From a virus (lineage: Duplodnaviria; Heunggongvirae; Uroviricota; Caudoviricetes): a stretch of 64,000 nt of DNA. The notes beneath the pieces were generated by a model, which was not told the origin of the DNA, did not search any database, and worked only from the letters and a program-made list of their open reading frames with translations. Shown piece by piece: positions 13,615 to 51,764 of the stretch; within the stretch, counting starts at the first letter, position 1, and each line of letters opens with the position of its first letter. Location: IMG/VR virus record IMGVR_UViG_2645727901_000008. One strand, 5' to 3'. The translations under genes were made by a program, and so were the position numbers.

Positions 13615-14541
13615 TTAACTAACAATCCAGTCCATAGCAACCATATCCTCTGGCGCTAAATCAATAGCATGGATTTTCCCATCCCGGATAGTGCGCCAGT
13701 GCTTCCTTGATCCGCCTTCGGGCCATACCCATACACCTTCAGACCATGAGGCGCGACGGCATACCGTTGCATATCCACTTCTGATCTTCTCTCTGGCGGT
13801 ATGCAGTGACAGATTATCTTTTGGGATTTCCGGTAAAGGATGATGGATTGCCTGAAACAGCCCCATCTTGGGATGATACCAGCGTTTGTTGCGTGGTTCT
13901 GCCTCCGACATAACCTGCTTGAAGGCTTTCTGGAAGGGGGCCAGGGCCACAATGGAGCGTCGCGCAAGCAAACCATCTGGAGTTAAAAACTCATGCGTAT
14001 CGGTGGGAATCCGGAAAGCGTTAACCAGGTTGCGACATTTGGCTTCGGTCAGGCCACATTTCGCCGCCAGCTGGCGGTAGCCAATGTAGCCTTCCGGAAT
14101 ATTGCCTTTCTTTATTTGCTCGAGTGTTTCAGCGACCATCGATACTTGTGCTGATACCTCGGCTACCTGGGCATTTACGGCGTTGATCCGGCGTTCATGC
14201 TCAAGATGCATTTGCGCCATTTCAGCCAGGATTTCGGCTTTTGATTTTAACTGTACCCGGGCATTCTCCAGTTCGCGCCAGCGGTCCACCAGCCGGGCGG
14301 TGAATTCGGGAGAGAGCTGCGCGACGACGACAATACTATCGCGCTTGCCTTGCTCGCCTTCGAAGACGTAATAGCTCGCCGGGCGGCCTGCGGTGGGCTT
14401 TTCCTCAATTTGAGGAAAAGATATTACGCCCCGTTCCGCCAGGTGTTCAATGGTGCGTTTAACGTTATCAGGGCGCTTACCTACCAGTTCCGCGATCTCA
14501 ATGCTGGTCATTGTCGCTTTTTGAGAGATGGACAGATTCAT
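13615..14541 (-). CDS. ant: Antirepressor-type protein (Rha/Ant N-terminal domain) fused to a C-terminal DUF2829-like domain
   Basis: MTSIEIAELVGKRPDNVKRTIEHL..GRPASYYVFEGEQGKRDSIVVVAQLSPEFTARLVDRWRELE (Rha-like). The C-terminus RRASWSEGVWVWP..DMVAMDWIVS parallels the separate 66-aa ORF at 51564. Occupies the P1 ant position after icd. Confidence 0.65.
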   Translation of the reverse strand: MNLSISQKATMTSIEIAELVGKRPDNVKRTIEHLAERGVISFPQIEEKPTAGRPASYYVFEGEQGKRDSIVVVAQLSPEFTARLVDRWRELENARVQLKSKAEILAEMAQMHLEHERRINAVNAQVAEVSAQVSMVAETLEQIKKGNIPEGYIGYRQLAAKCGLTEAKCRNLVNAFRIPTDTHEFLTPDGLLARRSIVALAPFQKAFKQVMSEAEPRNKRWYHPKMGLFQAIHHPLPEIPKDNLSLHTAREKIRSGYATVCRRASWSEGVWVWPEGGSRKHWRTIRDGKIHAIDLAPEDMVAMDWIVS

Positions 14542-14756
14542 CAGTGCGCCTCCACGCAGTTCATCGGCAGATTCCAGTAATTGAGGATCTCCATCGCATC
14601 AAGAGTGAAGCGAGCAGCAAAAATGCAGGGTTCTTCGGGAAGGTATGAGCGCGCCTCTGCTTCGGTAGCAGCCATGACGCAGATATACAGGTGTTTTTGG
14701 CAGGAATAGAAACGCCAGATAAATTCAGAATGAGTTGGGGTAGGGATAGTAGCCAT
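14541..14756 (-). CDS. icd: Icd-like small protein (cell-division-inhibitor family), module 1
   Basis: 71 aa, EFIWRF motif, paralogue of 52468-52692. TGATG coupling to ant. Its SD is covered by the b2 target of the c4-like RNA. Confidence 0.55.
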   Translation of the reverse strand: MATIPTPTHSEFIWRFYSCQKHLYICVMAATEAEARSYLPEEPCIFAARFTLDAMEILNYWNLPMNCVEAH

Positions 14757-14812
14757 ATTGGCAGCCTCCTTTGACTAAGTTAAGGAGCTACCGCGTGAGG
14801 TTCCAATCTCAA

Positions 14813-14892
14813 TGGCGGTAGCACTGACTGGGTTGGAACTACCGGCGTCAAAGGGAACCGGCCTGCCTTTCGGCAGCCCAGCCAGCACTACC
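14813..14892 (-). ncRNA. c4: c4-like antisense immunity RNA, module 1 (~77-80 nt)
   Basis: - 16-bp terminal helix GGUAGUGCUGGCUGGG / CCCAGUCAGUGCUACC, then GCCA.
- Internal CUGCC-GAAA-GGCAG hairpin.
- Loop CCUUUGAC and single-stranded GUUCCAA each have complements both upstream and downstream; the downstream copy overlaps the icd SD.
- Length fits the 77-nt P1 c4. Confidence 0.7.
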
Positions 14893-14941
14893 ATTGATCT
14901 CTGAGCTAAACGCTACGTATGGCTGTGCGATGGCATGACAC

Positions 14942-14963
14942 AAAAAAAGACGCTTTCGGCGTC
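14942..14963 (-). terminator. Hairpin plus U7 between the a1/b1 boxes and c4 (module 1)
   Basis: Minus strand: GACGC-CGAAA-GCGTC followed by TTTTTTT. Confidence 0.55.
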
Positions 14964-15068
14964 TGTGTCGCCTTTGACATTATCCGGGGTTCCAATCCCG
15001 GCACCCGTTTTTCTAAGGTGCCGTAGAAATATACCCCACGATAATGCCAGGGCGCAACAGTCAGTATT

Positions 15069-15236
15069 TTATGCTTTGGCGGATTTCTTCCGGGCTTGCT
15101 TGCAGGCGTAGGCCATTGCTTTAGCTTTCACTTCATCCAGCTTCCCGGTGATCGCTTCTTTTCCGAGAGTGACAAACCAGTCATAGCAACCGCCAGTGAT
15201 GTTCTGGATTTGAAAGTTGAGGTAGCGAACGGTCAT
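15069..15236 (-). CDS. Possible 55-aa ORF, coupled to a 29-aa ORF (15233-15322)
   Basis: Own translation: MTVRYLNFQIQNITGGCYDWFVTLGKEAITGKLDEVKAKAMAYACKQARKKSAKA. ATGA overlap with the upstream mini-ORF MNSYCLFPSLVVRHSRDNLHSLLALGVSK, which has an AAGGAG SD. Confidence 0.3.
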   Translation of the reverse strand: MTVRYLNFQIQNITGGCYDWFVTLGKEAITGKLDEVKAKAMAYACKQARKKSAKA

Positions 15237-15557
15237 TTTGACACCCCCAGCGCGAGTAAAGAATGCAGATTATCGCGTGAGTGGCGGACAACGAGTGATG
15301 GGAAAAGACAGTAGCTGTTCATAGTGTAGTGACTCCTTGCTTTCGGAGCCGCCATCGACTGTTCCACGGTCTGGTGGCGGCGCAATAAAGGCTGGAACAC
15401 CGTGAGTCAACGGGGGCTTTTCAGCCACCTATATTGCACCGCCATAGGTATAGCGGCGGCAATAATACGAAAAACTAAACAGTTTGTCTCAAAAAGTTGA
15501 CCGGTGTGCCAATCGGTAGTGAATGTACATCGGAGAAATTTACAATTCAACTTAAAA

Positions 15558-15574
15558 TGTTAGAAAACTAATTT
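15558..15574 (+). promoter_or_regulatory. 17-bp motif copy (candidate C1-type operator)
   Basis: TGTTAGAAAACTAATTT at the ref 3' end, upstream (on the minus strand) of the immI-1 leader. Minus-strand TTGAAT-17-TACATT lies just downstream. Confidence 0.45.
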
Positions 15575-16146
15575 ATCAATTCAATCGCCATCTGATACAA
15601 CGTCATTTCATCGGCATTGTGCCGCATGAAATCTGCTTTTCCGCCTATTTTTCCGTCAGCATGAACAGGGACCAGCCAGGGATATTGTTCTCGGACCTCG
15701 GCTGGCGCTGCGTACTGGTGGTGCCATTTACACAAAGGGAGGACATATTTATGCGCGTTCTCTGCCGTTCTCCCGAAGATATGGTGCAGGGATACTACTG
15801 GGCTATGTTGTCCGTGAATATGGCAGGCAATGCAGGGGAGAGTACCGATAGCGGTCTGTATCCGGCGTTCATCAGCTGTGAGTGATCTGCCCTTCAGGCC
15901 GCGTGACGTGCGTGTTTTTTTGGGCGGAGCGGATACAGCTTTATCTTTTCTCCGCTGTTCATATTGCTTTGCTTTTTCAATTTTCTTTTGCCGATATTCA
16001 GGCGATGCGGCTTTTTCTCTCGCTCGCTGCTGCTGGCGTTGAGCTTGTTGAAGGCGCTTTGCCCTTTGTTCCTCTCGCCAGGCCGGGTCAGCCAATTTTT
16101 GCATGGCTTTTTGTCTCTGTTTCTCCCAATAGCTCTGTTTCTGCAT
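15568..16146 (-). CDS. ref: Ref recombination-enhancement nuclease (HNH-type, RecA-dependent in P1)
   Basis: Basic N-terminus plus RGLKGR..ADERRI..LPCIACHIHG..SLHHI.GRT..LPLCKWHHQYAAPAEVREQYPWLVPVHADG, which closely matches P1 Ref as I recall it. Confidence 0.85.
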   Translation of the reverse strand: MQKQSYWEKQRQKAMQKLADPAWREEQRAKRLQQAQRQQQRAREKAASPEYRQKKIEKAKQYEQRRKDKAVSAPPKKTRTSRGLKGRSLTADERRIQTAIGTLPCIACHIHGQHSPVVSLHHIFGRTAENAHKYVLPLCKWHHQYAAPAEVREQYPWLVPVHADGKIGGKADFMRHNADEMTLYQMAIELIN

Positions 16147-16194
16147 GATGGCAGTCTCTTACTTTTCAATGATTTTTCTATGATTGATCAAAAC

Positions 16195-16224
16195 TGTTAG
16201 ATATTCAAAATTGATTTTCTAACA
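16195..16224. promoter_or_regulatory. Bivalent motif (candidate operator) overlapping a plus-strand sigma70-like promoter, between ref and the early operon
   Basis: TGTTAGA-N16-TCTAACA. TTGATT (16211-16216), 16 nt, TAATAT (16233-16238). Confidence 0.55.
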
Positions 16225-16263
16225 CAAAACATTAATATCATTCCTGATAACTGTTTGGAGGAC

Positions 16264-16419
16264 ATGATGCTTATAGCTTTAAGTGCGATCCACCAGCCAT
16301 CTGTGAATGAAATTGGCCTGTTCTATGTGTTGTTTTTCGGGGCGTTGGCGCTACTTGAGCTTGGTATTGAGCTTTTCGCAGTGCTTATGTTTTGCGTCAC
16401 GATTTTGGGGAAATTTTGA
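16264..16419 (+). CDS. 51-aa hydrophobic peptide, first gene of the early operon
   Basis: Own translation: MMLIALSAIHQPSVNEIGLFYVLFFGALALLELGIELFAVLMFCVTILGKF. GGAGG SD. TGATG coupling to the next gene. Confidence 0.4.
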   Translation: MMLIALSAIHQPSVNEIGLFYVLFFGALALLELGIELFAVLMFCVTILGKF

Positions 16420-17042
16420 TGGTGAAACGAGTTTTGAAAATTTACATCGCGGGGCCGATGACTGGTTATCCAGATTACAACCGTGCTGCGTTTAATGCGA
16501 AAGCGAGCGAGCTGATGGCTGAAGGGCATATCGTTCTGAATCCAGCTGTGTTACCTGGTGGCCTTTGTCAGAGTGAATACATGGATATTTGCCTGGCAAT
16601 GGTGCGTTCTGCTGATGCGATCTACTTGCTCAATCGATGGGAGGAATCGATTGGTGCTCGTGCAGAGCACGCGCTGGCTGAAAAGCTGGGGCTGACTGTA
16701 ATTTATGAATCACCAACCAACATTGAATGCCAGGTTGCTCCGCATATTTACCGGGAACTGGTCAATGCGTTACGTGATGTTGCTATTGAATGTCACGGCA
16801 CGGATCAGCTTCGCGCTCGCTTAAGCCAAACCCTTTCCAGTTACCTGTCTTTGGCTGAAGGATACAACCTCCGACAGCGAAGAATGGTCAAATTAATCAC
16901 TCTTTTATCGCAATCCCTTGCAAATGCTGAACCAACCAATCCGCTACCTGGTGACGCAATGAATTATCTGAAGTCATGCGGTGTTGTTTCTGAAGATGCA
17001 GTTCGTTTTGTGGAGTTTATGTCTCGGAGGATGTCGGCGTGA
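16419..17042 (+). CDS. DUF4406 / nucleoside 2-deoxyribosyltransferase-like protein with a C-terminal extension
   Basis: KIYIAGPMTGYPDYNRAAFNAKA..GHIVLNPA..DAIYLLNRWEESIGARAEHALAEKLG. Start taken at the ATG coupled to the upstream peptide (the track start 16392 is upstream of it). Confidence 0.6.
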   Translation: MVKRVLKIYIAGPMTGYPDYNRAAFNAKASELMAEGHIVLNPAVLPGGLCQSEYMDICLAMVRSADAIYLLNRWEESIGARAEHALAEKLGLTVIYESPTNIECQVAPHIYRELVNALRDVAIECHGTDQLRARLSQTLSSYLSLAEGYNLRQRRMVKLITLLSQSLANAEPTNPLPGDAMNYLKSCGVVSEDAVRFVEFMSRRMSA

Positions 17043-17356
17043 GCTGGCGGGGATGGGGAAGGGCAGAAATCATGATACTCCGCCAGTGCGCCGGAACTAT
17101 GACGGTAGAGAGTATTGGGAAGCTGATCGGTCGTACCGGTGATGCCGTCAGGACTAAAGCGCGGGAGCTGGGGATCAGCATGATTCTGAAAGGAGACTTT
17201 CATCCGTCAGCCAAATACCGGCAGAGCGATATAGAACTGGCACGGCAGCTTCATCAGTGTGGTGTTCCCCGCCGTGAGATCGCGGAAAAACTCGAAATGC
17301 CCCTGGGCATGATTAATCAGTACGTTTATTTCGAAAGGAGAGTACATGAAGTCTGA
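17039..17356 (+). CDS. Small putative DNA-binding (HTH) protein
   Basis: 105 aa with a GTGA-coupled start and two HTH-like stretches (IGKLIGRTGDAVRTKAREL; GVPRREIAEKLEM). Confidence 0.35.
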   Translation: MSWRGWGRAEIMILRQCAGTMTVESIGKLIGRTGDAVRTKARELGISMILKGDFHPSAKYRQSDIELARQLHQCGVPRREIAEKLEMPLGMINQYVYFERRVHEV

Positions 17357-17771
17357 AGGTTTAACGCCAGAGCAACTGGCGGAGCGTAACGCTCAGTATG
17401 TGACGGAAATTTCCCGTCTTGAGAAAGAGCGCGCGGCGCTGGCGGCGGAGAATGCAGGGCTAAAGGCGATATGTGATGACTGTCGCAGGTTCATCATGAA
17501 TGGTGTGCAGATGGGTTATATCAAGGTGCCAACAGCGGAAACAGATCCAGACCTTGAGACAATACGTATTGCTATATCACCACAAAAGCCCATTCCAGCC
17601 ACCGATGCTTTTCTGGCTGAAGTCCGGGCACAGGGATTGGAGATGTTTGCTCAGAAATGTAACTCAAAATCAGAACAGTCGATTGCATCTGATATACGCG
17701 ATAACTGGAAACTACTCGGTGAACATGCCACTGACTTTGCCGCAGAGCTTCGCAAGGGAGGGAAACAGTGA
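17346..17771 (+). CDS. Hypothetical early protein
   Basis: 141-aa ORF in a tightly coupled plus-strand operon. Confidence 0.35.
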   Translation: MKSEGLTPEQLAERNAQYVTEISRLEKERAALAAENAGLKAICDDCRRFIMNGVQMGYIKVPTAETDPDLETIRIAISPQKPIPATDAFLAEVRAQGLEMFAQKCNSKSEQSIASDIRDNWKLLGEHATDFAAELRKGGKQ

Positions 17772-18016
17772 GTAATTCAGCACGACTACAGCTTGGTTTT
17801 TCACCGCTATCAAAAACCATCGTGTTGGCAAAAATGCGTGACTTAGGGGATGGAACAAAACGTCGTGTTGGCAATGATCGCGGTCGTGATGTAACCAACG
17901 AGGCCGCTCAACTCGTCTGGCATCTGGTCATGGCAGAAGGCGGTGAAATTAATTGGGAGCTGGATGATGGTTCGCGCATGGTATTGAAGGCAGAAAAGCA
18001 GGAGCCACCACAGTGA
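17768..18016 (+). CDS. Hypothetical early protein
   Basis: 82 aa, GTGA-coupled. Confidence 0.3.
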   Translation: MSNSARLQLGFSPLSKTIVLAKMRDLGDGTKRRVGNDRGRDVTNEAAQLVWHLVMAEGGEINWELDDGSRMVLKAEKQEPPQ

Positions 18017-18306
18017 ATATCGACACCACGATAACGATCGATACGGCCCTCAACACAGGTTTGGCCCTGCTCGGTTGGTTTTACATCATGTTCAGTGCGG
18101 GGAAGTGGGCGGCCTCTGTTTTTCTAAAGCAGTGGGGAAAGCGCCGCAAACAGGAGATACGCCAGAAAGCGTTAGAGGCGTTCTATGACGCCTTTGAACT
18201 TAGCCGCATTGAGCCTGGCACAACAGCCAGGGTAGCAACAAAAGATGACCTGATGATCGTGATGTTCCGACAGGAGAAAGCAAATGGCAGCAAAGCGAAT
18301 GACTAA
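18013..18306 (+). CDS. Hypothetical membrane-anchored protein
   Basis: 97 aa, N-terminal hydrophobic helix (LNTGLALLGWFYIMFSAG). Confidence 0.3.
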   Translation: MNIDTTITIDTALNTGLALLGWFYIMFSAGKWAASVFLKQWGKRRKQEIRQKALEAFYDAFELSRIEPGTTARVATKDDLMIVMFRQEKANGSKAND

Positions 18307-18508
18307 TCGCGAACTTGTTGATGCCGCGATTGAACTTGCTGGCGATTTTTATTCCATGATGGGGTACACGCATCGCCCAGGCTTCAAATATTGGGAGTCT
18401 CCGCACCCGCAAGAGCAACGGGTATTTCAAATGGCCTGTCGCGCTTTTGAAGTTATTCGCGGTTCTGATGTGATGGACGCGATTGCTGATTTGGAGGATG
18501 AAGAGTGA
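18284..18508 (+). CDS. Hypothetical protein
   Basis: 74-aa ORF in the operon. Confidence 0.3.
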   Translation: MAAKRMTNRELVDAAIELAGDFYSMMGYTHRPGFKYWESPHPQEQRVFQMACRAFEVIRGSDVMDAIADLEDEE

Positions 18509-18816
18509 ACACAATTAAAGAAATGCCGGTAGAACGTGATGAATATGGCTGCTGGACACATCCGGAGTATGAGAAGTTTTGCGCAGGTCGTGAATATATT
18601 TCCACTGAGGAATTTGACGCCTGGATGAAGGAAAATAATCTTCAGTGGACTATTCGCAGTATGGATGAAGATGATTTTGATCTGGACGCAGCTGGTCCCG
18701 ATATTGCCGCCTGGGAACCGGAGCGACCAGAAGGTGAAGGCTGGTTTGTTGGCTCTATTCATGACACTGAAGATGGTCCAGTTTGTATCTGGCTGCGGGA
18801 GAAGGTTGCCGCATGA
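18505..18816 (+). CDS. Hypothetical acidic protein
   Basis: 103 aa, GTGA-coupled. Confidence 0.3.
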
Positions 18817-19505: not shown

Positions 19506-19530
19506 TCAAATCATTTACGCACTCAAAATG

Positions 19531-19560
19531 CGTTAGAACATTGATTTTAGTTTTCTAACA
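19531..19560. promoter_or_regulatory. Bivalent motif (candidate operator) upstream of the DUF968 gene
   Basis: CGTTAGA-N16-TCTAACA. TTGATT is embedded in the spacer, as at 16195. Confidence 0.5.
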
Positions 19561-19602
19561 TATTATTTTACCACTCGGAACAAAACAGAGTCGGTATGCA
19601 TT

Positions 19603-20598: not shown

Positions 20599-20611
20599 TG
20601 GGAACAACGCA

Positions 20612-28419: not shown

Positions 28420-29097
28420 TCACTCCACTACAAACCAGTCACATGCCAGTAAGTCGCCTACAGAAGGAACCCACGGAACAACTACACCTTGTGCATTTTT
28501 TAAGGCGAAATAAGCACCATACGGAACGAGGTCGCCGGGGAAATATCCCTTAATGGGTTCCATTCGTGCCGGGTACTGTCCTTCAGGAACCAGCCAGCAG
28601 AATTGGTTTTCGCCGTTCCACCCGCGTCGAGCAACTTTCTTGCCATCCTTCAGCCACATCAGCGCGTCAGAAAAGTCGGCTGCTTCAAGGTCGATTTCTT
28701 CTTGCTGGGTGGTGATGCCACCAGCAGAAATAGTTACGCTCCCGGTAAGATTAATCATCACGCCGTTGTCATCCGTAATGATGACCGTGGTTCCATTTTT
28801 GGCGGCGTCGTTAACCAGGCCATAGCGTTCCTCAAATGGTTTCTCCGGGGCATAGAACAAATAACCGTTTTCATAAACGATCAGATACCCGCCAGTTTTT
28901 GGTCGGTGTTTTTGTAAAAACATTGCGTCAACACAAACTGTTGCCCCTTTTGGCTCAACGAGTTCGATGCAGCCCCAAAGTGGGGCATCAGTTACTCCGA
29001 AAATAACAACATTTTTGATTTTCGATGCACTAACGTTTTTGTGAGCTTTGTATTTGGGAAGGAACTTAAAAAGCTCTTTCGTTGCCATGTTATTCAT
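28420..29097 (-). CDS. Protein with a C-terminal DUF2829 (Tad2-like) domain
   Basis: DFSDALMWLKDGKKVARRGWNGENQF..VVPWVPSVGDLLACDWFVVE fits the DUF2829 pattern as I recall it (AL..GkkvrR.gW....W.Ps..DllAeDW). Confidence 0.55.
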   Translation of the reverse strand: MNNMATKELFKFLPKYKAHKNVSASKIKNVVIFGVTDAPLWGCIELVEPKGATVCVDAMFLQKHRPKTGGYLIVYENGYLFYAPEKPFEERYGLVNDAAKNGTTVIITDDNGVMINLTGSVTISAGGITTQQEEIDLEAADFSDALMWLKDGKKVARRGWNGENQFCWLVPEGQYPARMEPIKGYFPGDLVPYGAYFALKNAQGVVVPWVPSVGDLLACDWFVVE

Positions 29098-42177: not shown

Positions 42178-42492
42178 TTATTGTGTCATTGCCTGGTAGA
42201 TAAAATACACGATGCATACCGGTACGATAGCCCATTGCAGCAATGAAAGCAGCCTCATGGCTGTCATGGGAGTAACTCCATCTACGTATTCCTTCTCTGA
42301 CATTTTCCCTAACCAACTAACCGACAAAAGGGTCGAGTTCTCCCCCATTTCCAGCTCCCTGAGGGCTTCCCGGATTAAAGGCGCTGTTACCACCTTGCGG
42401 GCAGTGTTGAGCGTAATGCTCCGCGTCCTCCCGGCGTCATCGGCAAACGCCAGGTTCACATGATATTTTTTGCTCAATGTACAAACTCCCAA
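42178..42492 (-). CDS. Hypothetical protein with a C-terminal TM helix
   Basis: 104 aa ending LLQWAIVPVCIVYFIYQAMTQ. Start uncertain (TTG at 42492 or an internal GTG). Confidence 0.3.
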   Translation of the reverse strand: MGVCTLSKKYHVNLAFADDAGRTRSITLNTARKVVTAPLIREALRELEMGENSTLLSVSWLGKMSEKEYVDGVTPMTAMRLLSLLQWAIVPVCIVYFIYQAMTQ

Positions 42493-42674
42493 TCATTGGC
42501 TTTCGCGCTTTCCGGGGTAATGCATACCTTGTCGCCGGTAACTATGTTTCGGGCTTCTAATGCCCCATCATCCATCTTTTTAAGCTCTATACAGAAAGAA
42601 TGAGGCCATGAGCAGCGACGAGCAACAACGTTAGCACCAGCAGGGATAAGTTCAGCCACGTTAAGTAAACGCAA
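42474..42674 (-). CDS. Short DUF2829-like protein
   Basis: 66 aa: ..ANVVARRCSWPHSFCIEL..PESAKANDWEFVH. Same R(R)xxW...DW-x-V pattern as the other copies, but the weakest of the five. Confidence 0.35.
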   Translation of the reverse strand: MRLLNVAELIPAGANVVARRCSWPHSFCIELKKMDDGALEARNIVTGDKVCITPESAKANDWEFVH

Positions 42675-42688
42675 AACGATTTCTCCGT

Positions 42689-43135
42689 TTAATCAAGACA
42701 AACATATTCCGTGATAGCTTTTATGGCTTCATCGGCACTGCGCGCCTCAAAGCAGTAATAGCCTGCTTCCGTGAGGCGAGTCATCCAGACGAGCTGTTCG
42801 GGAGTCAGACGGTTTCTCCCGTGCTTCATCTCAATGCGCATTCCGTGATACCCACCACGAGCAAGGTCAATAGAAAGGTCCGGATAGCCCTTCTTCTGAC
42901 CTTCTGCCACCATCTTAATGGCTGTCCTTTTGCCTCTCAGGCCGCCGTTCGGTGTTGAGTGTGTGTGCTCATACACGTATCGCATGTTGCGATACAGCCA
43001 ATCCAGAACGCGAACCTGTTCGTAATGTTCGTAATTCCGTTTTAATAAGTCAGGATTTCTTTCTAACTCTCTCAGTGCAGCAGCGTGCGGGGATATTTCA
43101 GAATACGCACTATGATGCCTGCGTCTTCGCATCAA
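42689..43135 (-). CDS. VRR-NUC domain nuclease
   Basis: EQVRVLDWL..GYPDLSIDLARGGYHGMRIEMKHG (PD-(D/E)xK, VRR-NUC layout). Confidence 0.6.
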   Translation of the reverse strand: MMRRRRHHSAYSEISPHAAALRELERNPDLLKRNYEHYEQVRVLDWLYRNMRYVYEHTHSTPNGGLRGKRTAIKMVAEGQKKGYPDLSIDLARGGYHGMRIEMKHGRNRLTPEQLVWMTRLTEAGYYCFEARSADEAIKAITEYVCLD

Positions 43136-43581: not shown

Positions 43582-43583
43582 GG

Positions 43584-44018: not shown

Positions 44019-44054
44019 TCAAATTCGGCCCCGGTTGGGGCCGCTCCTTATCTG

Positions 44055-47000
44055 TTAGGCCGCATCGGCGATTATTTTACGCAATTCATCTACCGAGTAA
44101 CGCGTAGATACCATCCATGCAGGACGGTCAAAGTTCACATCAGCAACCGGGTTTGCTTCAAAATTCCAGAAACGCCCGCCAATCTTCTTAATCGCGTCTT
44201 TGGCGTTCCGTATTGTCGAGGAACCAGGTTGGTCGGCAATGAGATAAACCGCACCGACGTCCTCGCTGACACTCCACCAGCGCCCGCGAACACGCGCCTT
44301 AGCGCGAATCGGCTTATCATTAACCACAATGATATAGTCATCATTCGCCGCTTCATCAGCTCTGGCTTCAGCCACTGCCGCCTGCTCTTCTCTTTTGCTT
44401 TCAGCCTGTTCAAGCCTTTCCGCGATCTCTGATTCGGTGGCCCCGCCGTTTTTCAGCGATACATAGTCTTGCCACGTTGCTGATTTGAGCGCATCCGGCA
44501 ACTCATTCACATAGTCACCGTCTTTCAACTCACGGGCGCGGCGGGTAGCCATTTCTACCAGGCGATTAACAGAAACAGCATCAGCAAAATCGTCCTTACT
44601 AATGTGTTTTTCATCAAATGCATTGATGACAGCCCCCACCTTAATCCACTGCGCTGCTGGCGAATCCAGAGGATTATCGGCCTGAACAATGGCTAATTTC
44701 GCTCCATCGACACCATTATTAGCCAGCTGCTCCAATGCCGACCAGCCATCGGCATCGCTGAGTGATTTATATTGCTCAAACAATGCATCGCGCCAGGCCA
44801 CCAGCGCAGCTCGTGTTTTCTCAATTTTCGCCGTAATTTTCGCGGCCTTCACCTGATTAAACATCCGTTCAATGTCATCAGTGTTGCTAAAGGCTTTCAT
44901 CCTGCCCTGGAATAAACGGTATGCCACCACGGTCTTCCAGAAAGATTCCAGCCCTTCTCCGGACGGTTTACGGAACAGGCTAAGAATATCTTCAGAAGTA
45001 ACTTTATTAAGTGAGCGACCGGACAAACCACGCCCTGCCATCCAGTTTTCAAACTCCTGGGAAACATCATCCATCGTGGCCTGTGACCCCCATGCCTGCA
45101 TTCCCTGGATGTAATCATATCCATACAATGCCTGGAGGAATCCCTCGCCGTCCACGACATTCAGCGGGTTATCACTGGCTTGTATTTTTGCCACTTCACG
45201 CTTCAGCGCCTCATCGTTGCCATCAGGGTAAATCCACCGCTCAGGCGCTATATCCGATGCTCGCCCGATTTTTTGACCTATTACGCCATCATAAGCCGAT
45301 GACAGTGCAATCTGACCATCATCGGTGCGATAAGCCCAGTATTTAATAGCTGAACCACCGCCCCATACTCTACTAGGCTTCCCGGCAGTGACATTCATTA
45401 CCCCATTGCGAATAGCATCATAGAACTGATCGCGCGTAAGTGTTGTTGATAGCTGGTGGCATTGAACACCACGTGCAGCTGTTTCACGCGATTCTGCAAC
45501 TCCCTCTTCAAAGGTTACCGATTCAATTATCAGGTTAAAGGGCAAAAATAATGCCGTCCCCGGAGAACGAGAGTAACGACTAGCCACATCCAGCCAGGAT
45601 ATGCGGCACGTACACCCGCCCCTTTCCGCATCAATGGCGGTAACACGAACAATTGCTGTCGTATTGTGATTCTCATCGATGATCGCGCGATAATGGCTGC
45701 CCTTGTGCAACAAGATATTTTTCTCAGTGCGTACATACTCCTGTGGGTTCTGCAATACATCGGCATCAAGCTCCAGAACCCCGGCTTTAATCGCACGTTC
45801 CAGATCACCACGAGAACGTTTCATAACGGTGTCAGCGTCTTTAGCTCTGGTGATCGCAAAGCGTAGCTCCCGCACACGTTTTCTGTAGTCTCGCAACTGT
45901 TCCAGAACATATTTCTGCCCGTTCCTGTTCGTCCCCGCTTTAATCAGGTCGTCAAGATTGCGCTGGTAATGCTCTACCTGCTCCATCGCGCTTTTCAGTT
46001 CTGTCTCCATCATGCCGATATCTTTCCCGGCAGCATTCGCCGCTTTCAGGTAGTTATCGAGAGCATTATTGGCTTCGCGTAGGGCTTTCAGTTTCAGACG
46101 TTCTTCACGCTCTTGCGCCTGACGACTCATGATTGCACGGCGTTCTTCCGGATTTGCCGCCAGCATAATGGCGCGTTCATCTGCGTCATCCGCATCACCA
46201 TTGGCGATCTCTGACATGTCGGAGGTCATCACCATATTGATCCAGTCCTTCTTACGTTTCAGCGTATCCAGACGGAAGTCATCAAATGTGCCTTTGCCAC
46301 AATAGTAGTGAACATTGACCTTTTCTTGTGGTGAGCCTACCCGAGCGCCGCGCCCATTACGTTGGTCGATACTGGCAGGAGTCCAGGGTAGTGTCAGATG
46401 GTGGATATCGGTTGTCCCGATGTGCAAGTTAATACCTACTTCAGCCTTCTTGTTACAGATTATGATGCGCGTGCGACCTTCGTTATAGTCGGCGGCAATA
46501 CCTTCCATGCCCTCAAGGCCAGCATCATTTTTAGCTGAGAGATAATCCTCATATTGGGCAAGTTTGCTGTAGTAGGTTTCCCATGCACCTTCTTTGTATT
46601 CACCGTTTTTATTTGGCGTAGGTTCAGTCGGCTTATTCACCTTCTTCAGCTTGACGCCGCCAGCCTGGCTAACTGTCGTCGCATTGATAATGCCTATCTC
46701 CTGCTCCGGCATTTGCAGTGCACTGGCAATAATACGGCGCAGCTTCTGGTGCTGGGCTTTTTCATCAATGAAGACGATTTGTTTACCGTTCTTCAGACCT
46801 TCACGAAGGTTTTCGATCAGCGCGGCATACTTCGGCGGGATGGGGTGTGATACCTGCTGCATATCAATACCGGCAGCCGCAATGGCCTTCAGTATTTCAG
46901 CTTCCAGTTCAATGCCAGCACGTATTTCAACATGCGACGGATGTTCGCTAAAGGTGGTCTTCACTACCTTGCTGGCACGCGTACTGACCAGCCCACCAGC

Positions 47001-50000
47001 GCCATCTTCTTCGGCCTCGTCTACATCATCTGCCACTTTACCGCCAGCTACTTTTGGCAGGGCATCAGCAATAGCTTTTACCTTGTCTGCAAGCTCAACG
47101 GGGAACTGGAATGTAATCGCACTGGCATACAGATCAGGATCTATAGCAACCTTATCCATGTCGCGGATGATGGAGAAGATGAAATCATCCGGTTTTTCGT
47201 TTGTGATATGCCCGTTTTCATCGACCGTCAGCGCATCTTTACTACTTAACTCCTGTGCACGCTTACGAAGTTCTTCGTAAATGGCCTCTTGCTCTCCTGT
47301 CATCGGGATCTGCAAGGTATTCTCGACAATATCAGGGATTTTTACCGTCGCCCCGACGTCCGCAGCAGTCTTCAGAGTAGTCCAGCGATGGAAAATACCA
47401 CGCAGACCATCCAGGTTCTGGAAGCCCACCAGTCCCTGCTTCTCTTCCACCTCACCGGAAATTTTCTGAACCTGAACTGTGGCTGTTTTACCGAACACGC
47501 GAACGAAATCATCCGGCGTAACAATACCCATGCGCATCCACTCTTCCTGCGGAATGACAGTAGACAGCATGTTGAAAGCATCAATCGGGCTGTTCACCAG
47601 CGGTGTTGCCGTCAGCATAACCACACCACGCCCGTTGTTGCGTTTCATCATGTACGCAGCTTTTACAGCCATGTCGCGGGCCATTTTGGATACTGCCGGG
47701 TTAGGCAAATATGCCAGTTGCCCCGCTTCGCGCCCGGCGCTAAAGGAGTTGCGGTAGTTATGCCCTTCGTCGGCAATTACGCTATCGAAGTTCATATCCT
47801 CAAAGTACGGGATATTCTGCTTCTTCGTTGTACCGGTATTTGCGGCCTGGTCCTTAATCTTGTTCTTCTTCTGCGCGTCACGGTGTTTGCCAGATGCCAG
47901 GTCAAGACGCCCCATTTCCACAGCATTAAAGACCGCTTGCTGTGAGTTTTCCTCAATGGTTTCTTCTCGTAGCGGGATAGACGCGAATTGCTCTTTTGTC
48001 ATGATGACCGTTCGCCAATTTGACGACGGGATCATGTTCATGCGCTGAACGATAACGGCGCTGGCGGACTCTTTCACAACATTTCTGGTAAGAGCCTGCC
48101 CGTTACTGTCGAGGCGTGGTTCGCCATTTTCATCAAGCACCGGCGCGGTCAGAATATTTCCGCTGTCATCACGAACTTCATCCAAACCGATAAACATCAT
48201 ATTGGCGAAGGCATCAGAACTGTAGAAACTCTGTGCCTCGTGATACCAGTTCTGATAAACCGCCTTCGGAACAACAATACACGTGCGTTTAGTGCGACCT
48301 GTTTCGAAGTTATACGCCTCAAGCGCAAGCGCGGTCGTGGTTTTACCCAGCCCGGTGCCAAATCCCATGATGCCGCGCCCATCTTCTGATAAGCGACGAA
48401 CTTCTTCATTCTGATAAGTCAGAGGAATGCGCTTCCCACTAATCCCCTCCAGGCCAAGCGGTGCGTCAGAATGCGTAAACGGGATGAAGCCATTAAATGC
48501 GTCGTTATAGTCGCGGGCTATCTGATCAGCCTGCGGGTGAGTGCGTAACCAGTCGTTGAAGCTAATTTCCAGTTGAGCAATCTTATCCAGGTACTCGTTA
48601 GCGTTCTGCCCACGCGGTTTAATGCCGTTCAGGTAGTTTTCTAACTGGTTCAGGAAGCCGTCTTTATTGTTGGCCTTCTTGAACTCATTCCCGTTTTTGC
48701 CGTTTACGGTTCGTAGTTGATAGCCAGTAAATACCCCGTCCTTACCTTCGTAATCGTCCGGAGATACCAGAATGCCGTCCTCAACCTTAAGGTCGGGTTC
48801 TGTATACTTAAACTCGTCATAGCCCTGCTCTGCCAGGAACTCTTTTATCAAGCGGCGATCCAGCCAGCGGGCGTTCAGATTAACGGTGACTTTATTTAGT
48901 GGCGTGAAAATGCGTTTCTCTTCGATTTTCGCCAACTGACGCTCAAAGTTCGCTTTCTGCTCACCTGTTGACGCATCACGCCAGCCCACCAGCAATGCTG
49001 TTTTGGTTGCAATATCGCCGCTGGTGGCGCGGTCCATCGGCAGCAGGCAGCCATACCCATCAATAGCGATATCATCAAATTTCGCCAGGTATTCCAGAGC
49101 AGCATCGTCGTCTCCTGGCAGTTCGCCAGCAAACGCCTCACGAAAATCGTCCAGTGTGATTGGATTAAGTGCCACGTCACTGAAAAGGTGGGTTACAACT
49201 TGTTCCGGGCGTGTAAAGTCAATACCGGCAGCACCATCCGTTACATCAAGTCGTCCAGCAAGGAGGTCAGAAGCAGAGCCGTCCTGTTTCACGTTGCCAG
49301 TGAAAGTCATCCAGTTTTTAGCGCCAGCTTCAGCAATCCCATTCAGCTTAATCGCGTGCGGCGGACCATACTTCGCAATTTCGGCTTCCGCCAGGCGCGC
49401 GGCATCAGCAAGTACATCATCAACATTTTCCCCCAGATTACGCTTATCAAGCGCCTTGTTGATCAACTGCCCTATCAGTGCGCCGCGCATAACGCGTTCT
49501 CTGTCTTTTTCTCTCTGCTTGCCAGCAAAGCGAATCATTGCCGCTACTTCATCACTGATAACCGATGGATAGTCGGACGCGATCGCCGATATCTGGTCCC
49601 ATGACAACGCCAGAATGCCATTTGTTGACTGAAACGCGATCTGCAGATCACCAAACGTCGTAACACCATATCGATTTACATCAAGCGCGGAGGATTTGGT
49701 TGTCGCGTCCTTGACCCATTTCAGACCATCAAACTCATGCCAGATGCCGCCTACAAGGCGTTTATCGCCCACTTTCGCGCCCTGCCATGCCTGAGTAGTT
49801 ACGCCAAGCAAATCCCAATTAATGCGGCTTTCAAAGCGGCGCGATAGAGCGGTTTTCATCGACTCATTGGATACACGACCGTCCTTTTTCACCACCAGGG
49901 TATTGCGGAAGCTGGTACGCTCCATATCGCCGTAAACAAATCGCTTCCCTTCGGTTGTAAACCATTTTCCTTTGAGGAAGGTATCCCAAAGGACGTTTGC

Positions 50001-50894
50001 CGATTTGAGCGTTGCATCATCCGTGTCGGGGATCATCTCCAGGAAGGTTTCCGGGTGTTTACGCAATACCCATACGTCCACCACGGTATCTGTACCGGAT
50101 TCGCTGAACGTACCAGAAGGCATACGATGTGCGCCCAAAAATTCCGCTTTACGGCTGACTTTATCGCGCAATTTTTTGTATTTCGTACCATCGGTCATGC
50201 CATTCGGCACCACCAATACAATTAGTCCACCAGGTTTAACCTTGTCGATCGTGCGCAACACAAAGTAATTGCCAACGTTCTTCTCGTTTGCATATGCCGG
50301 ATCAAGCCCGGCAACGCCGGAACGCCCTTCACCAAACGGTACGTTACCAACAGCGTGGTCATACATTGCGTCTTTCGCCGCCAGCGCCTCAAACGCCCCG
50401 ATATTCACATCGTCTTCCGGGTGCAAAAGCTGGTTTATTCGACCGGAAATCGGAGACAGTTCGGCGCTGGTCATTATCATGCCCTGCCGTTTTGTCTCCT
50501 GGAAAATACCTGTGCCCGCTGATGGTTCCAGTACGTGCCCACCATCAATACCGTAGTCAGCAAACAGATCCCATATACCTTCAGCCATAAACTGTGGCGT
50601 GTAGTATTCGTATTGGCTGCCCTCACCATCTGTCAGGCCGCCTTCACCGGTATACCCGGCAAGAATCTGACGTTGTTCGTCAGTTAATTTCGCCCCATCG
50701 AAGCCGGGCGGAAGGGAATTAAGAAGATTTACTGCGGCATTGTTTGCTGCCCGGCGTGTTTTCTGAATACTGACGCCATCGGCTTTCCTGACGCCAAAGG
50801 TCGCAACAGCACGTAATTTATGCAACCGACTAACAATTTCAATCAGTTCGCCTAAGCTGGAGGCTTCACTGATTGAATGAAGTAGTTTGTCCAA
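44055..50894 (-). CDS. darB: DarB-like antirestriction protein (N6-methyltransferase plus helicase fusion)
   Basis: 2279 aa (I recall P1 DarB as ~2255 aa). GNVPFG methylase motif IV. Helicase motif I GFGTGLGKTTTALAL and motif II VIADEGHNYRN. Confidence 0.8.
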   Translation of the reverse strand: MDKLLHSISEASSLGELIEIVSRLHKLRAVATFGVRKADGVSIQKTRRAANNAAVNLLNSLPPGFDGAKLTDEQRQILAGYTGEGGLTDGEGSQYEYYTPQFMAEGIWDLFADYGIDGGHVLEPSAGTGIFQETKRQGMIMTSAELSPISGRINQLLHPEDDVNIGAFEALAAKDAMYDHAVGNVPFGEGRSGVAGLDPAYANEKNVGNYFVLRTIDKVKPGGLIVLVVPNGMTDGTKYKKLRDKVSRKAEFLGAHRMPSGTFSESGTDTVVDVWVLRKHPETFLEMIPDTDDATLKSANVLWDTFLKGKWFTTEGKRFVYGDMERTSFRNTLVVKKDGRVSNESMKTALSRRFESRINWDLLGVTTQAWQGAKVGDKRLVGGIWHEFDGLKWVKDATTKSSALDVNRYGVTTFGDLQIAFQSTNGILALSWDQISAIASDYPSVISDEVAAMIRFAGKQREKDRERVMRGALIGQLINKALDKRNLGENVDDVLADAARLAEAEIAKYGPPHAIKLNGIAEAGAKNWMTFTGNVKQDGSASDLLAGRLDVTDGAAGIDFTRPEQVVTHLFSDVALNPITLDDFREAFAGELPGDDDAALEYLAKFDDIAIDGYGCLLPMDRATSGDIATKTALLVGWRDASTGEQKANFERQLAKIEEKRIFTPLNKVTVNLNARWLDRRLIKEFLAEQGYDEFKYTEPDLKVEDGILVSPDDYEGKDGVFTGYQLRTVNGKNGNEFKKANNKDGFLNQLENYLNGIKPRGQNANEYLDKIAQLEISFNDWLRTHPQADQIARDYNDAFNGFIPFTHSDAPLGLEGISGKRIPLTYQNEEVRRLSEDGRGIMGFGTGLGKTTTALALEAYNFETGRTKRTCIVVPKAVYQNWYHEAQSFYSSDAFANMMFIGLDEVRDDSGNILTAPVLDENGEPRLDSNGQALTRNVVKESASAVIVQRMNMIPSSNWRTVIMTKEQFASIPLREETIEENSQQAVFNAVEMGRLDLASGKHRDAQKKNKIKDQAANTGTTKKQNIPYFEDMNFDSVIADEGHNYRNSFSAGREAGQLAYLPNPAVSKMARDMAVKAAYMMKRNNGRGVVMLTATPLVNSPIDAFNMLSTVIPQEEWMRMGIVTPDDFVRVFGKTATVQVQKISGEVEEKQGLVGFQNLDGLRGIFHRWTTLKTAADVGATVKIPDIVENTLQIPMTGEQEAIYEELRKRAQELSSKDALTVDENGHITNEKPDDFIFSIIRDMDKVAIDPDLYASAITFQFPVELADKVKAIADALPKVAGGKVADDVDEAEEDGAGGLVSTRASKVVKTTFSEHPSHVEIRAGIELEAEILKAIAAAGIDMQQVSHPIPPKYAALIENLREGLKNGKQIVFIDEKAQHQKLRRIIASALQMPEQEIGIINATTVSQAGGVKLKKVNKPTEPTPNKNGEYKEGAWETYYSKLAQYEDYLSAKNDAGLEGMEGIAADYNEGRTRIIICNKKAEVGINLHIGTTDIHHLTLPWTPASIDQRNGRGARVGSPQEKVNVHYYCGKGTFDDFRLDTLKRKKDWINMVMTSDMSEIANGDADDADERAIMLAANPEERRAIMSRQAQEREERLKLKALREANNALDNYLKAANAAGKDIGMMETELKSAMEQVEHYQRNLDDLIKAGTNRNGQKYVLEQLRDYRKRVRELRFAITRAKDADTVMKRSRGDLERAIKAGVLELDADVLQNPQEYVRTEKNILLHKGSHYRAIIDENHNTTAIVRVTAIDAERGGCTCRISWLDVASRYSRSPGTALFLPFNLIIESVTFEEGVAESRETAARGVQCHQLSTTLTRDQFYDAIRNGVMNVTAGKPSRVWGGGSAIKYWAYRTDDGQIALSSAYDGVIGQKIGRASDIAPERWIYPDGNDEALKREVAKIQASDNPLNVVDGEGFLQALYGYDYIQGMQAWGSQATMDDVSQEFENWMAGRGLSGRSLNKVTSEDILSLFRKPSGEGLESFWKTVVAYRLFQGRMKAFSNTDDIERMFNQVKAAKITAKIEKTRAALVAWRDALFEQYKSLSDADGWSALEQLANNGVDGAKLAIVQADNPLDSPAAQWIKVGAVINAFDEKHISKDDFADAVSVNRLVEMATRRARELKDGDYVNELPDALKSATWQDYVSLKNGGATESEIAERLEQAESKREEQAAVAEARADEAANDDYIIVVNDKPIRAKARVRGRWWSVSEDVGAVYLIADQPGSSTIRNAKDAIKKIGGRFWNFEANPVADVNFDRPAWMVSTRYSVDELRKIIADAA

Positions 50895-51045
50895 AGGATT
50901 TCCCCCTCTAAACCGTAAAAAATTCCGCTATGCGGTACGGTTGAGAGGGTATGGAGAATGTTATTTTCAGGGGGACGATACTACCGTCAAAATCACATAC
51001 TCCCCATAGTTTGCCTACTTATTAACCCATGACCGGGAGAAAAAT

Positions 51046-51531
51046 ATGGCAAACATTGAACCTCGCTGGCTAATTGAAGCCCGTAAGCACATTGGCCTGA
51101 CTGAAATAAAAGGCGCTAAACACAACCCTGAAATCGTTCAGTTCTGGCGCGACATCAAGCGCGGCGGAATTAAAGACGATGAAACGCCGTGGTGCGCAGC
51201 ATTTGTCGGTGCAATGCTGGAACGTGTAGGCATCCGCTCAACAAGATTTGAGTCGGCAAAATCCTATCTGGATTGGGGCGAGAAATTAGATACACCGGCA
51301 TACGGATGTATCGTTGTATTTACCCGCGTAGGCGGTGGGCACGTAGGCTTCGTTGTCGGACGCCGTGCCAATGGCGATCTGCTTGTCCTGGGTGGGAACC
51401 AGGGGGATGCTGTTAATATTCGCGCATTCCCAACATCAAGAGTGTCTGGCTATCGCTGGCCTGCTGGCGAACCACGCAATACCGCTCTGTTACCAGTCGG
51501 AGACGCAGCAACCTCAACTAATGAGGCATGA
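51046..51531 (+). CDS. Putative cell-wall hydrolase (TIGR02594 / CHAP-NlpC-like)
   Basis: GAKHNPEIVQFW..DDETPWCAAFVGAML..GGHVGFVVG, the catalytic Cys/His layout I associate with TIGR02594. Confidence 0.5.
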   Translation: MANIEPRWLIEARKHIGLTEIKGAKHNPEIVQFWRDIKRGGIKDDETPWCAAFVGAMLERVGIRSTRFESAKSYLDWGEKLDTPAYGCIVVFTRVGGGHVGFVVGRRANGDLLVLGGNQGDAVNIRAFPTSRVSGYRWPAGEPRNTALLPVGDAATSTNEA

Positions 51532-51555
51532 AAAAAGCCCCGGCCAGGCCGGGGC
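51532..51555 (-). terminator. Intrinsic terminator of immI-like module 2
   Basis: Minus strand: GCCCCGG-CCTGG-CCGGGGC followed by TTTTT. Confidence 0.6.
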
Positions 51556-51563
51556 ATCACGCT

Positions 51564-51764
51564 TCAATTCACGATCCAATCATTACCGACTATATCAGCC
51601 GTCGATAAATCAACTTCCCGGATCTGGAGTCCATTAATACAAAACCATCCGGTAGTAGAGTAATTATCAGGCCAGGCCCATACACCAACACTCCATGCTT
51701 TACGGCGGCACACTTCAGCCTGTCCTTCCCTGATTTTTTTTACCGCCTGCATGATGTCCATCAC
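51564..51764 (-). CDS. Stand-alone DUF2829-like protein
   Basis: 66 aa: EVCRRKAWSVGVWAWP..STADIVGNDWIVN. Equivalent to the C-terminal domain fused to the module-1 antirepressor. Confidence 0.45.
   Translation of the reverse strand: MMDIMQAVKKIREGQAEVCRRKAWSVGVWAWPDNYSTTGWFCINGLQIREVDLSTADIVGNDWIVN

Follow-up and report, generated by a model that had tools for sequence, protein, structure and literature searches.

Tad2-related domains in five transcription units of a D6-like phage-plasmid, with minimal forms tied to both of its C4 RNA-icd-ant switch operons

The DNA analysed here (the window, meaning the whole stretch of 64,000 nucleotides) is a D6-like phage-plasmid of E. coli/Salmonella, and it encodes a five-member family of Tad2-fold (PF11195) domains that belongs to the conserved core of the D6 lineage and is spread over five different transcription units. 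To judge from its sequence, copy B is a credible sponge-type Tad2 of the MoTad2 clade, and the C-terminus of copy A, copy E and, probably, copy D make up a minimal 'core-only' Tad2 subfamily of about 65 residues. The two closest minimal copies, A and E, are tied to both C4 RNA-icd-ant switch operons, A as a C-terminal fusion and E as the last cistron, translationally coupled and followed by a terminator. To the favoured account as a whole, in which five related domains comprise one sponge, B, and minimal copies acting as sponges of the switch operons, we assign a probability of roughly 0.5. A preliminary description had singled out five ORFs by a shared C-terminal pattern, and all five were found on the minus strand, each where it had been placed:

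13615..14541, minus strand: copy A, ant cistron of immI module 1, 308 aa, a Rha/Roi-type protein in the antirepressor position whose C-terminus (residues 244-308 = 13618-13812, minus strand) is a fused minimal Tad2-fold domain
28420..29097, minus strand: copy B, 225 aa, an N-terminal module (about 1-135) followed by a canonical MoTad2-like Tad2 domain (residues 137-225 = 28423-28689, minus strand)
36732..37307, minus strand: copy C, 191 aa, an N-terminal domain (about 1-100) followed by a divergent long-form Tad2 domain (residues 103-190)
42474..42674, minus strand: copy D, an ORF of 66 aa that begins with TTG, probably a minimal Tad2-like domain of a very divergent kind
51564..51761, minus strand: copy E, 65 aa, a minimal Tad2-fold domain as a separate protein, encoded by the last cistron of immI module 2

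The family profiles retrieve exactly five copies from phage D6, matching the five of the window, no Tad2-like domain from 1,347 segments of phage P1 (best E 0.3) and no sixth copy from 948 six-frame segments of the window. Plasmid records that carry A, C, D and E number 103-119 and those that carry B 235; the reported share of D6-like phage-plasmids with a Tad2 is 93%. The canonical copy B is not new: it already bears a DUF2829 annotation (in relatives, 'DUF2829 domain-containing protein') and is a reported component of D6/P1 elements. All copies are intact in the window, in L001 and in D6, and purifying selection is evident from dN/dS values of 0.13 (A, C-terminal 65 codons) and 0.17 (D).

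A search against Pfam PF11195 (gathering score 25 bits), proposed earlier for all five copies, recovers B (80.1 bits, residues 141-224) and C (39.1 bits, residues 103-190), but E (14.9 bits, E=0.04, aligned end to end) and the C-terminus of A (10.1 bits) fall below gathering and D has no match. B also matches the PDB entries Tad2 8v3e and ModTad2 9eib (E~1e-20), AcrIIA7/HgmTad2 8kbi and SPO1 Tad2 8sme. C matches a local DUF2829 profile at E=8e-13 and nothing among the PDB sequences; it sits upstream of orf5-lpa-pacA-pacB on the same strand and is about 100% identical in L001 and in D6 (orf6). The N-terminal domains of B and C have no convincing match among solved structures, and in Pfam (E<=1) these partners match neither Acb4 (PF13876) nor PF21825.

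The minimal copies A and E are 45% identical to each other over A residues 244-308 (E=5e-19), and they are tied to PF11195 by a transitive HMM link through the sequences P0013, P0010 and P0011: the A/E profile finds P0013 at E=1.9e-4, and P0013 in turn belongs to PF11195 with 37.4 bits; the bridging sequence P0010 scores 23.9 bits against PF11195. This family is very narrow: when 1.84 billion proteins were searched exhaustively with HMMER for the A/E profile, only 7 matched, bridging sequences included. For E and D, word-indexed homolog searches yielded near-identical relatives only, and the A/E-family and D-family profiles found no Tad2 among PDB sequences. The AF2 model of E, for which E's own narrow family was the only input, has a pLDDT of 90.5 and displays the N-terminal helix, antiparallel beta-sheet, short alpha3 and C-terminal strand of Tad2; the solved Tad2 structures (8sme/8kbi/9eib) superpose on it better than other folds do, a match that is unique and strong. 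Comparison with Tad2 by structure prediction, also suggested beforehand, covered E and D, and the fold match of D is not specific. The proposed homology itself is borne out, through Pfam for B and C, through the transitive HMM link for A and E and, probably, through a short-family hhalign match for D.

Whether these domains can bind a nucleotide is a separate matter. The principal ligand contacts are W25, N26, W73 and D79 in SPO1 Tad2 numbering, equivalent to W21, N22, W87 and D93 of HgmTad2. Ligand binding is abolished in the W21A/N22A mutant of HgmTad2, and in SPO1 Tad2 W73 makes major van der Waals contacts with the ligand. B retains all four as well as S76 (pocket pattern W/N/G...W/S/-/D), and C retains three (W/P...W/T/V/D; N26->P). 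A and E keep two, W25 and D79, with N26->S in both and W73 replaced by I in A and by V in E, and in the hhalign alignment D keeps only W25 (N26->P, W73->V, D79->S). Among short forms that are merely 30-45% identical, W24 and D57, which correspond to ligand-contacting residues in Tad2, are invariant. The preliminary description had envisaged a diversified set of signal sponges: B is a credible one, but three of the five (A, D and E) keep at most two of the four contacts, and the set is not supported in that form.

Helix alpha1, a small beta-sheet, helix alpha3 and the C-terminal strand make up the core-only form. In A and E the beta2-beta3 insertion is short of about 21 residues, helix alpha2 among them, whereas B and C have it, so that the pocket Trp positions are separated by 26 residues in A and E, 48 in B and 54 in C. 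The missing insertion explains why A/E, when aligned by hhalign to the broad DUF2829 reference, match it in the N-terminal half only (75%). In solved Tad2 proteins this insertion, with alpha2, forms a V-shaped dimer within a homotetramer whose pockets lie at protomer interfaces, and it builds a second pocket, which holds cyclic dinucleotides in HgmTad2 and is the predicted cUMP site in MoTad2. Because the elements of the V-shaped dimer and second pocket are missing, the known Tad2 tetramer may not form in A and E.

Copy D lies in a same-strand gene string, darB-ulx-orf13-VRR-NUC-D-pmgR-like. The darB and ulx genes of this string are anti-restriction genes. When the combined profile is run against the 948 six-frame segments of the window, D is the sole outlier (E=4e-5; next 0.24), and in hhalign against the short family it scores 29.7, compared with a column-shuffle null of 9.8 +/- 1.9 (maximum 16.2; n=200). 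The short-family profile is its sole link, as hhalign against the broad DUF2829 reference gives nothing (1.4%); among viral structures, a DUF2829 protein of 66 aa matches it best. D is therefore a probable, not a certain, Tad2 relative. One could argue that only B functions in anti-defence, that C, D and E are leftover paralogs, neutral or in decay, and that D merely resembles Tad2 by chance as a small beta-barrel. Although the sub-threshold Pfam scores of A and E and the failure of D to match Pfam or the broad DUF2829 profile fit this scenario, we consider it improbable: every copy is intact in the window, L001 and D6, dN/dS is 0.13-0.17 where measurable, the copies persist in about 100-120 plasmids, the fold match of E stands out, and the profile score of D is far outside both the shuffle null and the P1 control.

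It had also been noted that each antirepressor has one copy fused or adjacent to it, and this holds: A is fused and E directly follows Ant-2, both in complete immI-type modules with a C4 RNA and an icd gene. Besides A and E, these modules comprise:

14541..14756, minus strand: icd-like gene of immI module 1, an ORF with 63% identity to P1 Icd
14811..14898, minus strand: C4 antisense RNA of immI module 1 (Rfam RF01695, 77.1 bits; gathering score 45)
51537..51555, minus strand: terminator-like hairpin, 8 G-C pairs then T6, 9 nt past the E stop codon
51761..52468, minus strand: Ant-2, a 235-aa Rha/Roi-type antirepressor-position protein without a Tad2-like domain
52468..52692, minus strand: icd-like gene of immI module 2, an ORF with Icd-like annotation in L001 and D6 (orf19)
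52740-52825, minus strand: C4 antisense RNA of immI module 2 (RF01695, 70 bits, above gathering)
52894-52946, minus strand: a1/b1 target element of the module 2 C4 RNA (RF03163, 51.5 bits, above gathering)
53037-53010 and 52968-52940: promoter-like sites of immI module 2

The P1-type immI character of both modules is apparent from two RF01695 matches and one RF03163 match, all above gathering, and from an icd homolog in each, that of module 1 likewise being annotated as Icd-like in L001 and D6. The P1 C1 operator consensus, with <=3 mismatches allowed, has 0 matches. A matches PHROG 63 'anti-repressor Ant' over residues 2-308 and phrog_7385 over 247-307, and scores 29.6 bits against Phage_pRha (cut-off 29.9); its counterparts in L001 (308 aa) and D6 (orf82, 313 aa) are intact. 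Ant-2, whose D6 equivalent is orf18, matches Phage_pRha (36.8 bits) and PHROG 63. As the two Ant bodies (Ant-2 and A residues 1-232) are 67% identical and the C-terminus of A is related to E at the 45% level, the fused and split arrangement is real. The span of the PHROG 63 profile raised the possibility that the fusion is common among Ant proteins, which was rejected, because tblastn coverage of the C-terminal domain is confined to D6 records; other phages contain hundreds of Rha/Roi-type Ant homologs without a Tad2-like domain. Nor is Ant adjacency a general rule for short forms, an idea rejected by the contexts of P0010, P0011 and P0013: the divergent short forms of other phage-plasmid-like contigs are free-standing, in variable regions and far from any Ant.

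A 66-aa ORF at 51564-51764 had been described, and an ORF does lie there, but its start is most likely the ATG at 51761 (65 aa) rather than the GTG at 51764. This ATG overlaps the Ant-2 stop codon (TGATG) and is preceded by a GGAGGT Shine-Dalgarno sequence, and the hairpin beyond E, which resembles an intrinsic terminator, marks the end of the immI-2 operon. The sequence of E is nearly invariant over about 110 plasmids.

Why should a minimal Tad2 core accompany antirepressors? It is possible, if somewhat doubtful, that the minimal domains are Ant accessory modules, SH3-like barrels that serve Ant oligomerisation or contact the D6 C1 repressor or another protein partner; the Tad2 fold would then have been put to use in protein-protein interaction, leaving anti-defence to B and perhaps C. 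Two paralogous Ant modules, one fused and one split at an identical boundary, typically point to a physical or functional partnership, translational coupling would fix the stoichiometry, the tetramer-forming insertion has been lost along with half of the four principal ligand contacts, the fusion is conserved under purifying selection, and the constancy of E fits constraint by a partner better than an arms race. However, the hundreds of Ant homologs that lack such a domain indicate that Ant function does not need it, the divergent short forms stand far from any Ant, and the equivalents of ligand contacts, W24 and D57, do not vary. A protein-protein mode would also be without precedent in this family, as we know of no characterised Tad2-family member that works through such contacts.

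Perhaps the Tad2 core is instead a sensor that binds a host immune nucleotide and gates the antirepressor, so that the prophage induces or changes its immunity state when Thoeris, CBASS or Pycsar fires during attack by another phage. A ligand-binding fold covalently fused to a switch protein, one copy in each of the two switch modules and a partly kept pocket are what such a device would call for, but the idea is purely inferential and no precedent for Tad2 as a sensor was found; moreover, the domain is a separate polypeptide in module 2, and its pocket is incomplete. We regard this reading as very improbable, and equally so its extension, in which the host alarm would switch the C1/Ant immunity circuit and induction would allow escape from a cell about to abort infection. 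If true, this would be without precedent: a phage sponge fold turned into a sensor, through which the immune signals of bacteria feed into the lysis-lysogeny decision.

A more appealing scenario remains the favoured one, that of a canonical sponge accompanied by switch-operon sponges. B would act as a homotetramer that soaks up TIR-derived signals of the ADPR type (His-ADPR-like), and possibly cyclic pyrimidine ones, which would blunt Thoeris- or Pycsar-type immunity. The minimal copies would be small ligand-binding or oligomerising modules made in a fixed ratio to the antirepressor, most likely immediate-early sponges with a remodelled pocket, in which the W25/D79 equivalents are invariant and the N26/W73 equivalents replaced. 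In favour of a sponge role are the record of the characterised family, the four contacts of B, the constancy of W24 and D57, the free-standing short forms in variable regions of other contigs, the 65-66-aa DUF2829 proteins of other phages and the place of D in one string with darB and ulx; against it are the replaced contacts, the missing insertion and the sponge-to-sponge nature of the fusions described so far. Their fused form (A) may have arisen through loss of the overlapping stop and start codons between ant and the small gene. In phage P1, the C4 RNA of immI blocks icd-ant translation, and on this precedent the minimal copies would be produced when that block is overcome, that is, upon infection or induction. 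The link between anti-defence and the induction switch suggested in the preliminary description would be compatible with this operon structure.

Tad2 sponges are a main phage route against signalling-based immunity, and the ligand range of the family is still expanding. What appears new here is a conserved 65-residue, core-only subfamily that lies under the Pfam threshold and, in a phage-plasmid lineage that is clinically widespread, is hard-wired to the two antirepressor operons. Should the minimal forms bind ligands, they would represent the smallest functional Tad2 unit, probably with new specificities, and the immunity switch itself would be a source of anti-defence; should they be Ant partners, a sponge fold would have been reused for regulation.

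Every characterised member of the Tad2 family is a sponge, with specificities that cover CBASS, Pycsar and Thoeris I, II and IV. The closest known relative of B is MoTad2/ModTad2 of a Myroides odoratus prophage (PDB 9eib, 8v3e), a sponge that takes up the His-ADPR of type II Thoeris and the cUMP/cCMP of Pycsar. The C-terminal domain of B aligns with it over its whole length (E~1e-20, about 50% identity), the pocket-tryptophan spacing is nearly the same (48 in B, 47 in MoTad2), and B has the GWNG and W-x-P-S-x-x-D motifs; B differs in its extra N-terminal module of about 135 aa and in T78->G, H71->V and D67->Q. SPO1 Tad2 (Gp34.65; 8sme/8smg) and HgmTad2/AcrIIA7 (8kbi-8kbm) are tetrameric gcADPR sponges, and HgmTad2 also binds cyclic dinucleotides. 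They have 47-65 residues between the pocket Trp positions, in contrast to the 26 of A and E, which lack alpha2 and the insertion and carry the N26->S and W73->V/I replacements; D has, in addition, lost D79 (->S, hhalign). Closer in size to the minimal copies are short DUF2829 phage proteins of 65-66 aa (for example Pectobacterium phage CBB A0A1L2CVD1 and Siphoviridae sp. A0A8S5M8A0), for which we found no reported antirepressor link; these proteins are the best, but weak, viral structural matches to D (E 0.011-0.13).

The modules themselves follow the order of P1 immI (c4 - icd - ant1/ant2), with a C4 RNA, an icd homolog and an ant-position gene, twice. The ant-position proteins have no detectable similarity to P1 Ant1 (E 0.26) and are of the Rha/Roi type instead; they are positional analogues of P1 Ant1 only, and we infer the designation 'antirepressor' itself. 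Unlike P1, which has no such domain, the window modules end with or fuse to a Tad2-core domain, and a minimal Tad2 core attached to, or right after, antirepressor genes is an arrangement that we did not find described. The Tad2 fusions described so far join sponge to sponge (Acb4-Tad2 and Sequestin PF21825-Tad2). A, B and C resemble these in that the Tad2 domain is joined to another module, but the partners in B and C are neither Acb4 nor PF21825, and that of A is a regulator-type protein rather than a sponge.

An ORF check bore out the five reading frames of the preliminary description, all on the minus strand.

The five copies, with the residues aligned to SPO1 Tad2 W25, N26, W73 and D79
A: 13615-14541 (-), 308 aa, C-terminal fusion on a protein in antirepressor position; W, S, I, D (2/4 contacts)
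B: 28420-29097 (-), 225 aa, long-form domain behind an N-terminal module; W, N, W, D (4/4 contacts, plus S76)
C: 36732-37307 (-), 191 aa, long-form domain behind an N-terminal module; W, P, W, D (3/4 contacts)
D: 42474-42674 (-), 66 aa, free short ORF; W, P, V, S (1/4 contacts)
E: 51564-51764 (-), free short ORF, first described as 66 aa but probably starting at the ATG at 51761 (65 aa); W, S, V, D (2/4 contacts)

Assignment of all five to PF11195 (Tad2-like/DUF2829; gathering score 25 bits) held for B (80.1 bits) and C (39.1 bits), whereas A, D and E stayed under 25 bits: E aligned end to end at 14.9 bits (E=0.04), the A C-terminus scored 10.1 bits, and D gave no match in the Pfam scan. PHROGs unites the A C-terminus and E in phrog_7385 and keeps D apart in phrog_7206. 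The A/E family is very narrow: when 1.84 billion representatives were searched exhaustively with HMMER, seven proteins came up, and three of these link it to Pfam (P0013, at 37.4 bits, passes the threshold; P0010 scores 23.9 and P0011 14). Members of this short family are 30-45% identical, with W24, D57 and a C-terminal DW invariant. Tad2-fold homology is sound for A, B, C and E, and probable for D.

For D, neither a PDB profile search nor hhalign against a 42-sequence DUF2829 reference gave a match. Among 948 six-frame segments, D is the top non-member with the short-form profile (E=0.0014) and reaches E=4e-5 with the combined profile, the next segment lying at 0.24; the same profiles recover its ortholog in phage D6 (E=1.6e-4). 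Aligned by hhalign, the D and short families score 29.7 over 59 columns, against 9.8 +/- 1.9 (maximum 16.2) for 200 column shuffles. The AF2 model of D (pLDDT 84) has its elements in the same order as E, and its top Foldseek match among viral models is a 66-aa DUF2829 protein of Pectobacterium phage CBB (prob 0.99, E 0.011, 26% identity). It thus appears quite likely that D belongs to the Tad2-fold family. It is a real gene, since its two allelic types (71-73% identical protein) show a dN/dS of 0.17 at dS~1.1. Of the two, the window has the rarer: identity reaches 95% or more in 8/112 plasmid records and is 60-80% in 104, whereas for E it reaches 95% or more in 102/111. D lies in a same-strand string, darB-ulx-orf13-VRR-NUC-D-pmgR-like, behind the anti-restriction genes darB and ulx; its neighbours are a VRR-NUC domain ORF (42689-43135, -), called pmgM-like in D6, and a 104-aa pmgR-like ORF (42178-42492, -) that overlaps its 3' end by 19 nt.

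Around B and C, a 10-kb stretch shares ~95% identity with phage D6 and with some 100 plasmids (~90 kb) of E. coli, Salmonella and Shigella; the window is a D6-lineage phage-plasmid of the P1 family. With annotation taken from a close relative (NZ_CP148392.1) and D6 (NC_050154.1), D6 proved to hold exactly the same five copies (orf114, orf6, orf11, orf17, orf82). A profile search of the 948 segments found no sixth copy in the window, and the same profiles found none in phage P1 (1,347 segments, best E 0.3). PLSDB records for the A C-terminal domain (103), E (111), D (112) and C (119) match the number of D6-like plasmids; B is in 235 because it also occurs in P1-like elements. The five-copy set is real, beyond chance, conserved in the D6 lineage and specific to it. 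B follows dut, downstream of a cre-like recombinase, and C lies upstream of orf5-lpa-pacA-pacB. Between C and tciA/tciB-like genes is a four-tRNA cluster (37765-39613, -), where D6 has three annotated tRNAs (Ser, Thr, Asn).

Published Tad2 proteins are tetrameric sponges of TIR-derived signals. In SPO1 Tad2 the ligand is gripped mainly by W25, W73, N26 and D79, with T78, S76 and others contributing; the HgmTad2 equivalents are W21/N22/G23, W87/L88 and S90/T92/D93, and its W21A/N22A and S90A/T92A/D93A mutants lose binding. Mapped through residue-numbered alignments (hhalign for D), these positions only partly support the diversified sponge set proposed earlier: homology stands, as does B as a sponge homolog, but the evidence so far does not allow C, and still less the three minimal forms (the A C-terminus, E and probably D), to be called sponges, because by the pocket check of the preliminary description their pockets are incomplete.

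The C-terminal 89 residues of B directly match the solved Tad2 8v3e and ModTad2 9eib (E~1e-20), and also HgmTad2/AcrIIA7 8kbi, SPO1 Tad2 8sme and SptTad2 8wjd. B is an ordinary MoTad2-type homolog of the Tad2 sponges, and a previously recognised one. MoTad2 itself uses separate pockets to sequester His-ADPR (type II Thoeris) and cUMP/cCMP (Pycsar), and specificity of B for His-ADPR and/or cyclic pyrimidines is a reasonable inference. The N-terminal module of B (28693-29097, -, residues 1-135) has relatives at 34-40% identity over residues ~13-105 in unrelated Klebsiella, Ralstonia, Pseudomonas (PaBG), Burkholderia and E. coli phages, and a sole, weak PDB match, Dec of phage L (6e3c, E=0.005). 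The D6 ortholog of B has only 146 aa, and no more than 41% of the module matches there, in two pieces. Since Tad2 domains are frequently fused to other sponges, for example Acb4 or Sequestin/PF21825, the module is a candidate for testing.

The two Trp positions are separated by 47 residues in SPO1 Tad2 and MoTad2, 65 in an HgmTad2-like protein, 48 in B and 54 in C, but only 26 in A and E, which lack the beta2-beta3 insertion with helix alpha2. In solved Tad2 proteins this insertion builds the V-shaped dimer and a second pocket, where HgmTad2 holds cyclic dinucleotides and MoTad2 is predicted to bind cUMP. We prefer to view the minimal forms as small ligand-binding oligomers with a remodelled pocket that would be delivered from immunity-switch operons at infection or induction, to which we give a probability of about 0.5. 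That they are sensors instead seems very improbable.

The operons in question are two immI modules. According to Rfam, a C4 antisense RNA lies in each (module 1, 14811-14898; module 2, 52740-52825), and there is a single a1/b1 target element (52894-52946). After either C4 RNA comes an icd homolog (module 1, 14541-14756, product 63% identical to P1 Icd; module 2, 52468-52692) and then, in ant position, a Rha/Roi-type protein. These Ant proteins have no detectable similarity to P1 Ant1, so that the label antirepressor reflects position and annotation. Directly upstream of the module-1 C4 RNA is an Rfam isrK match (Hfq-binding sRNA; 14943-15021, -; 62.7 bits, gathering score 50) that carries a terminator-like hairpin of its own (14964-14948); module 2 has the c4-a1b1 target element there instead. 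The proposal that one copy is fused to, and another adjoins, an antirepressor-position gene was confirmed. In module 1 the domain is joined through a linker of ~12 residues, and no terminator was found directly after A. In module 2 the start codon of E, an ATG preceded by a GGAGGT Shine-Dalgarno, shares bases with the stop codon of Ant (TGATG), and a hairpin of 8 G-C pairs then T6 lies 9 nt past the E stop codon; E is therefore the last cistron and translationally coupled. Protein A matches E at 45% identity over residues 244-308 (E=5e-19), and over residues 1-232 it matches the product of the gene directly before E (235 aa) at 67%; a two-part unit thus occurs once fused and once split, at an identical boundary. 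The fused domain (13615-13812, -) is more diverged than free E, at 80-90% DNA identity in 96/103 plasmid records.

Such an arrangement could mean that the minimal forms are accessory or interaction modules of Ant, the main rival, which we regard as rather unlikely. Of 726 phage records that contain Rha/Roi-type homologs, those of D6 alone cover the A C-terminal domain; the divergent short forms P0010 and P0011 stand free between capsid and upfB/upfC-like genes on other 88-110 kb contigs, and P0013 adjoins a YonV_C gene. The Ant link is therefore a D6-lineage feature rather than a family rule.

Tests on 18 homologs showed that the Tad2 family can inhibit CBASS, Pycsar and Thoeris I, II and IV; HgmTad2 binds cyclic dinucleotides as well, without Cas9 inhibition. 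In our limited literature search, neither the presence of several Tad2 paralogs in these elements nor a minimal subfamily nor an antirepressor fusion was mentioned. For "Tad2 AcrIIA7", a 2025 survey gave frequencies of 93% among D6-like and 56% among P1-like phage-plasmids.
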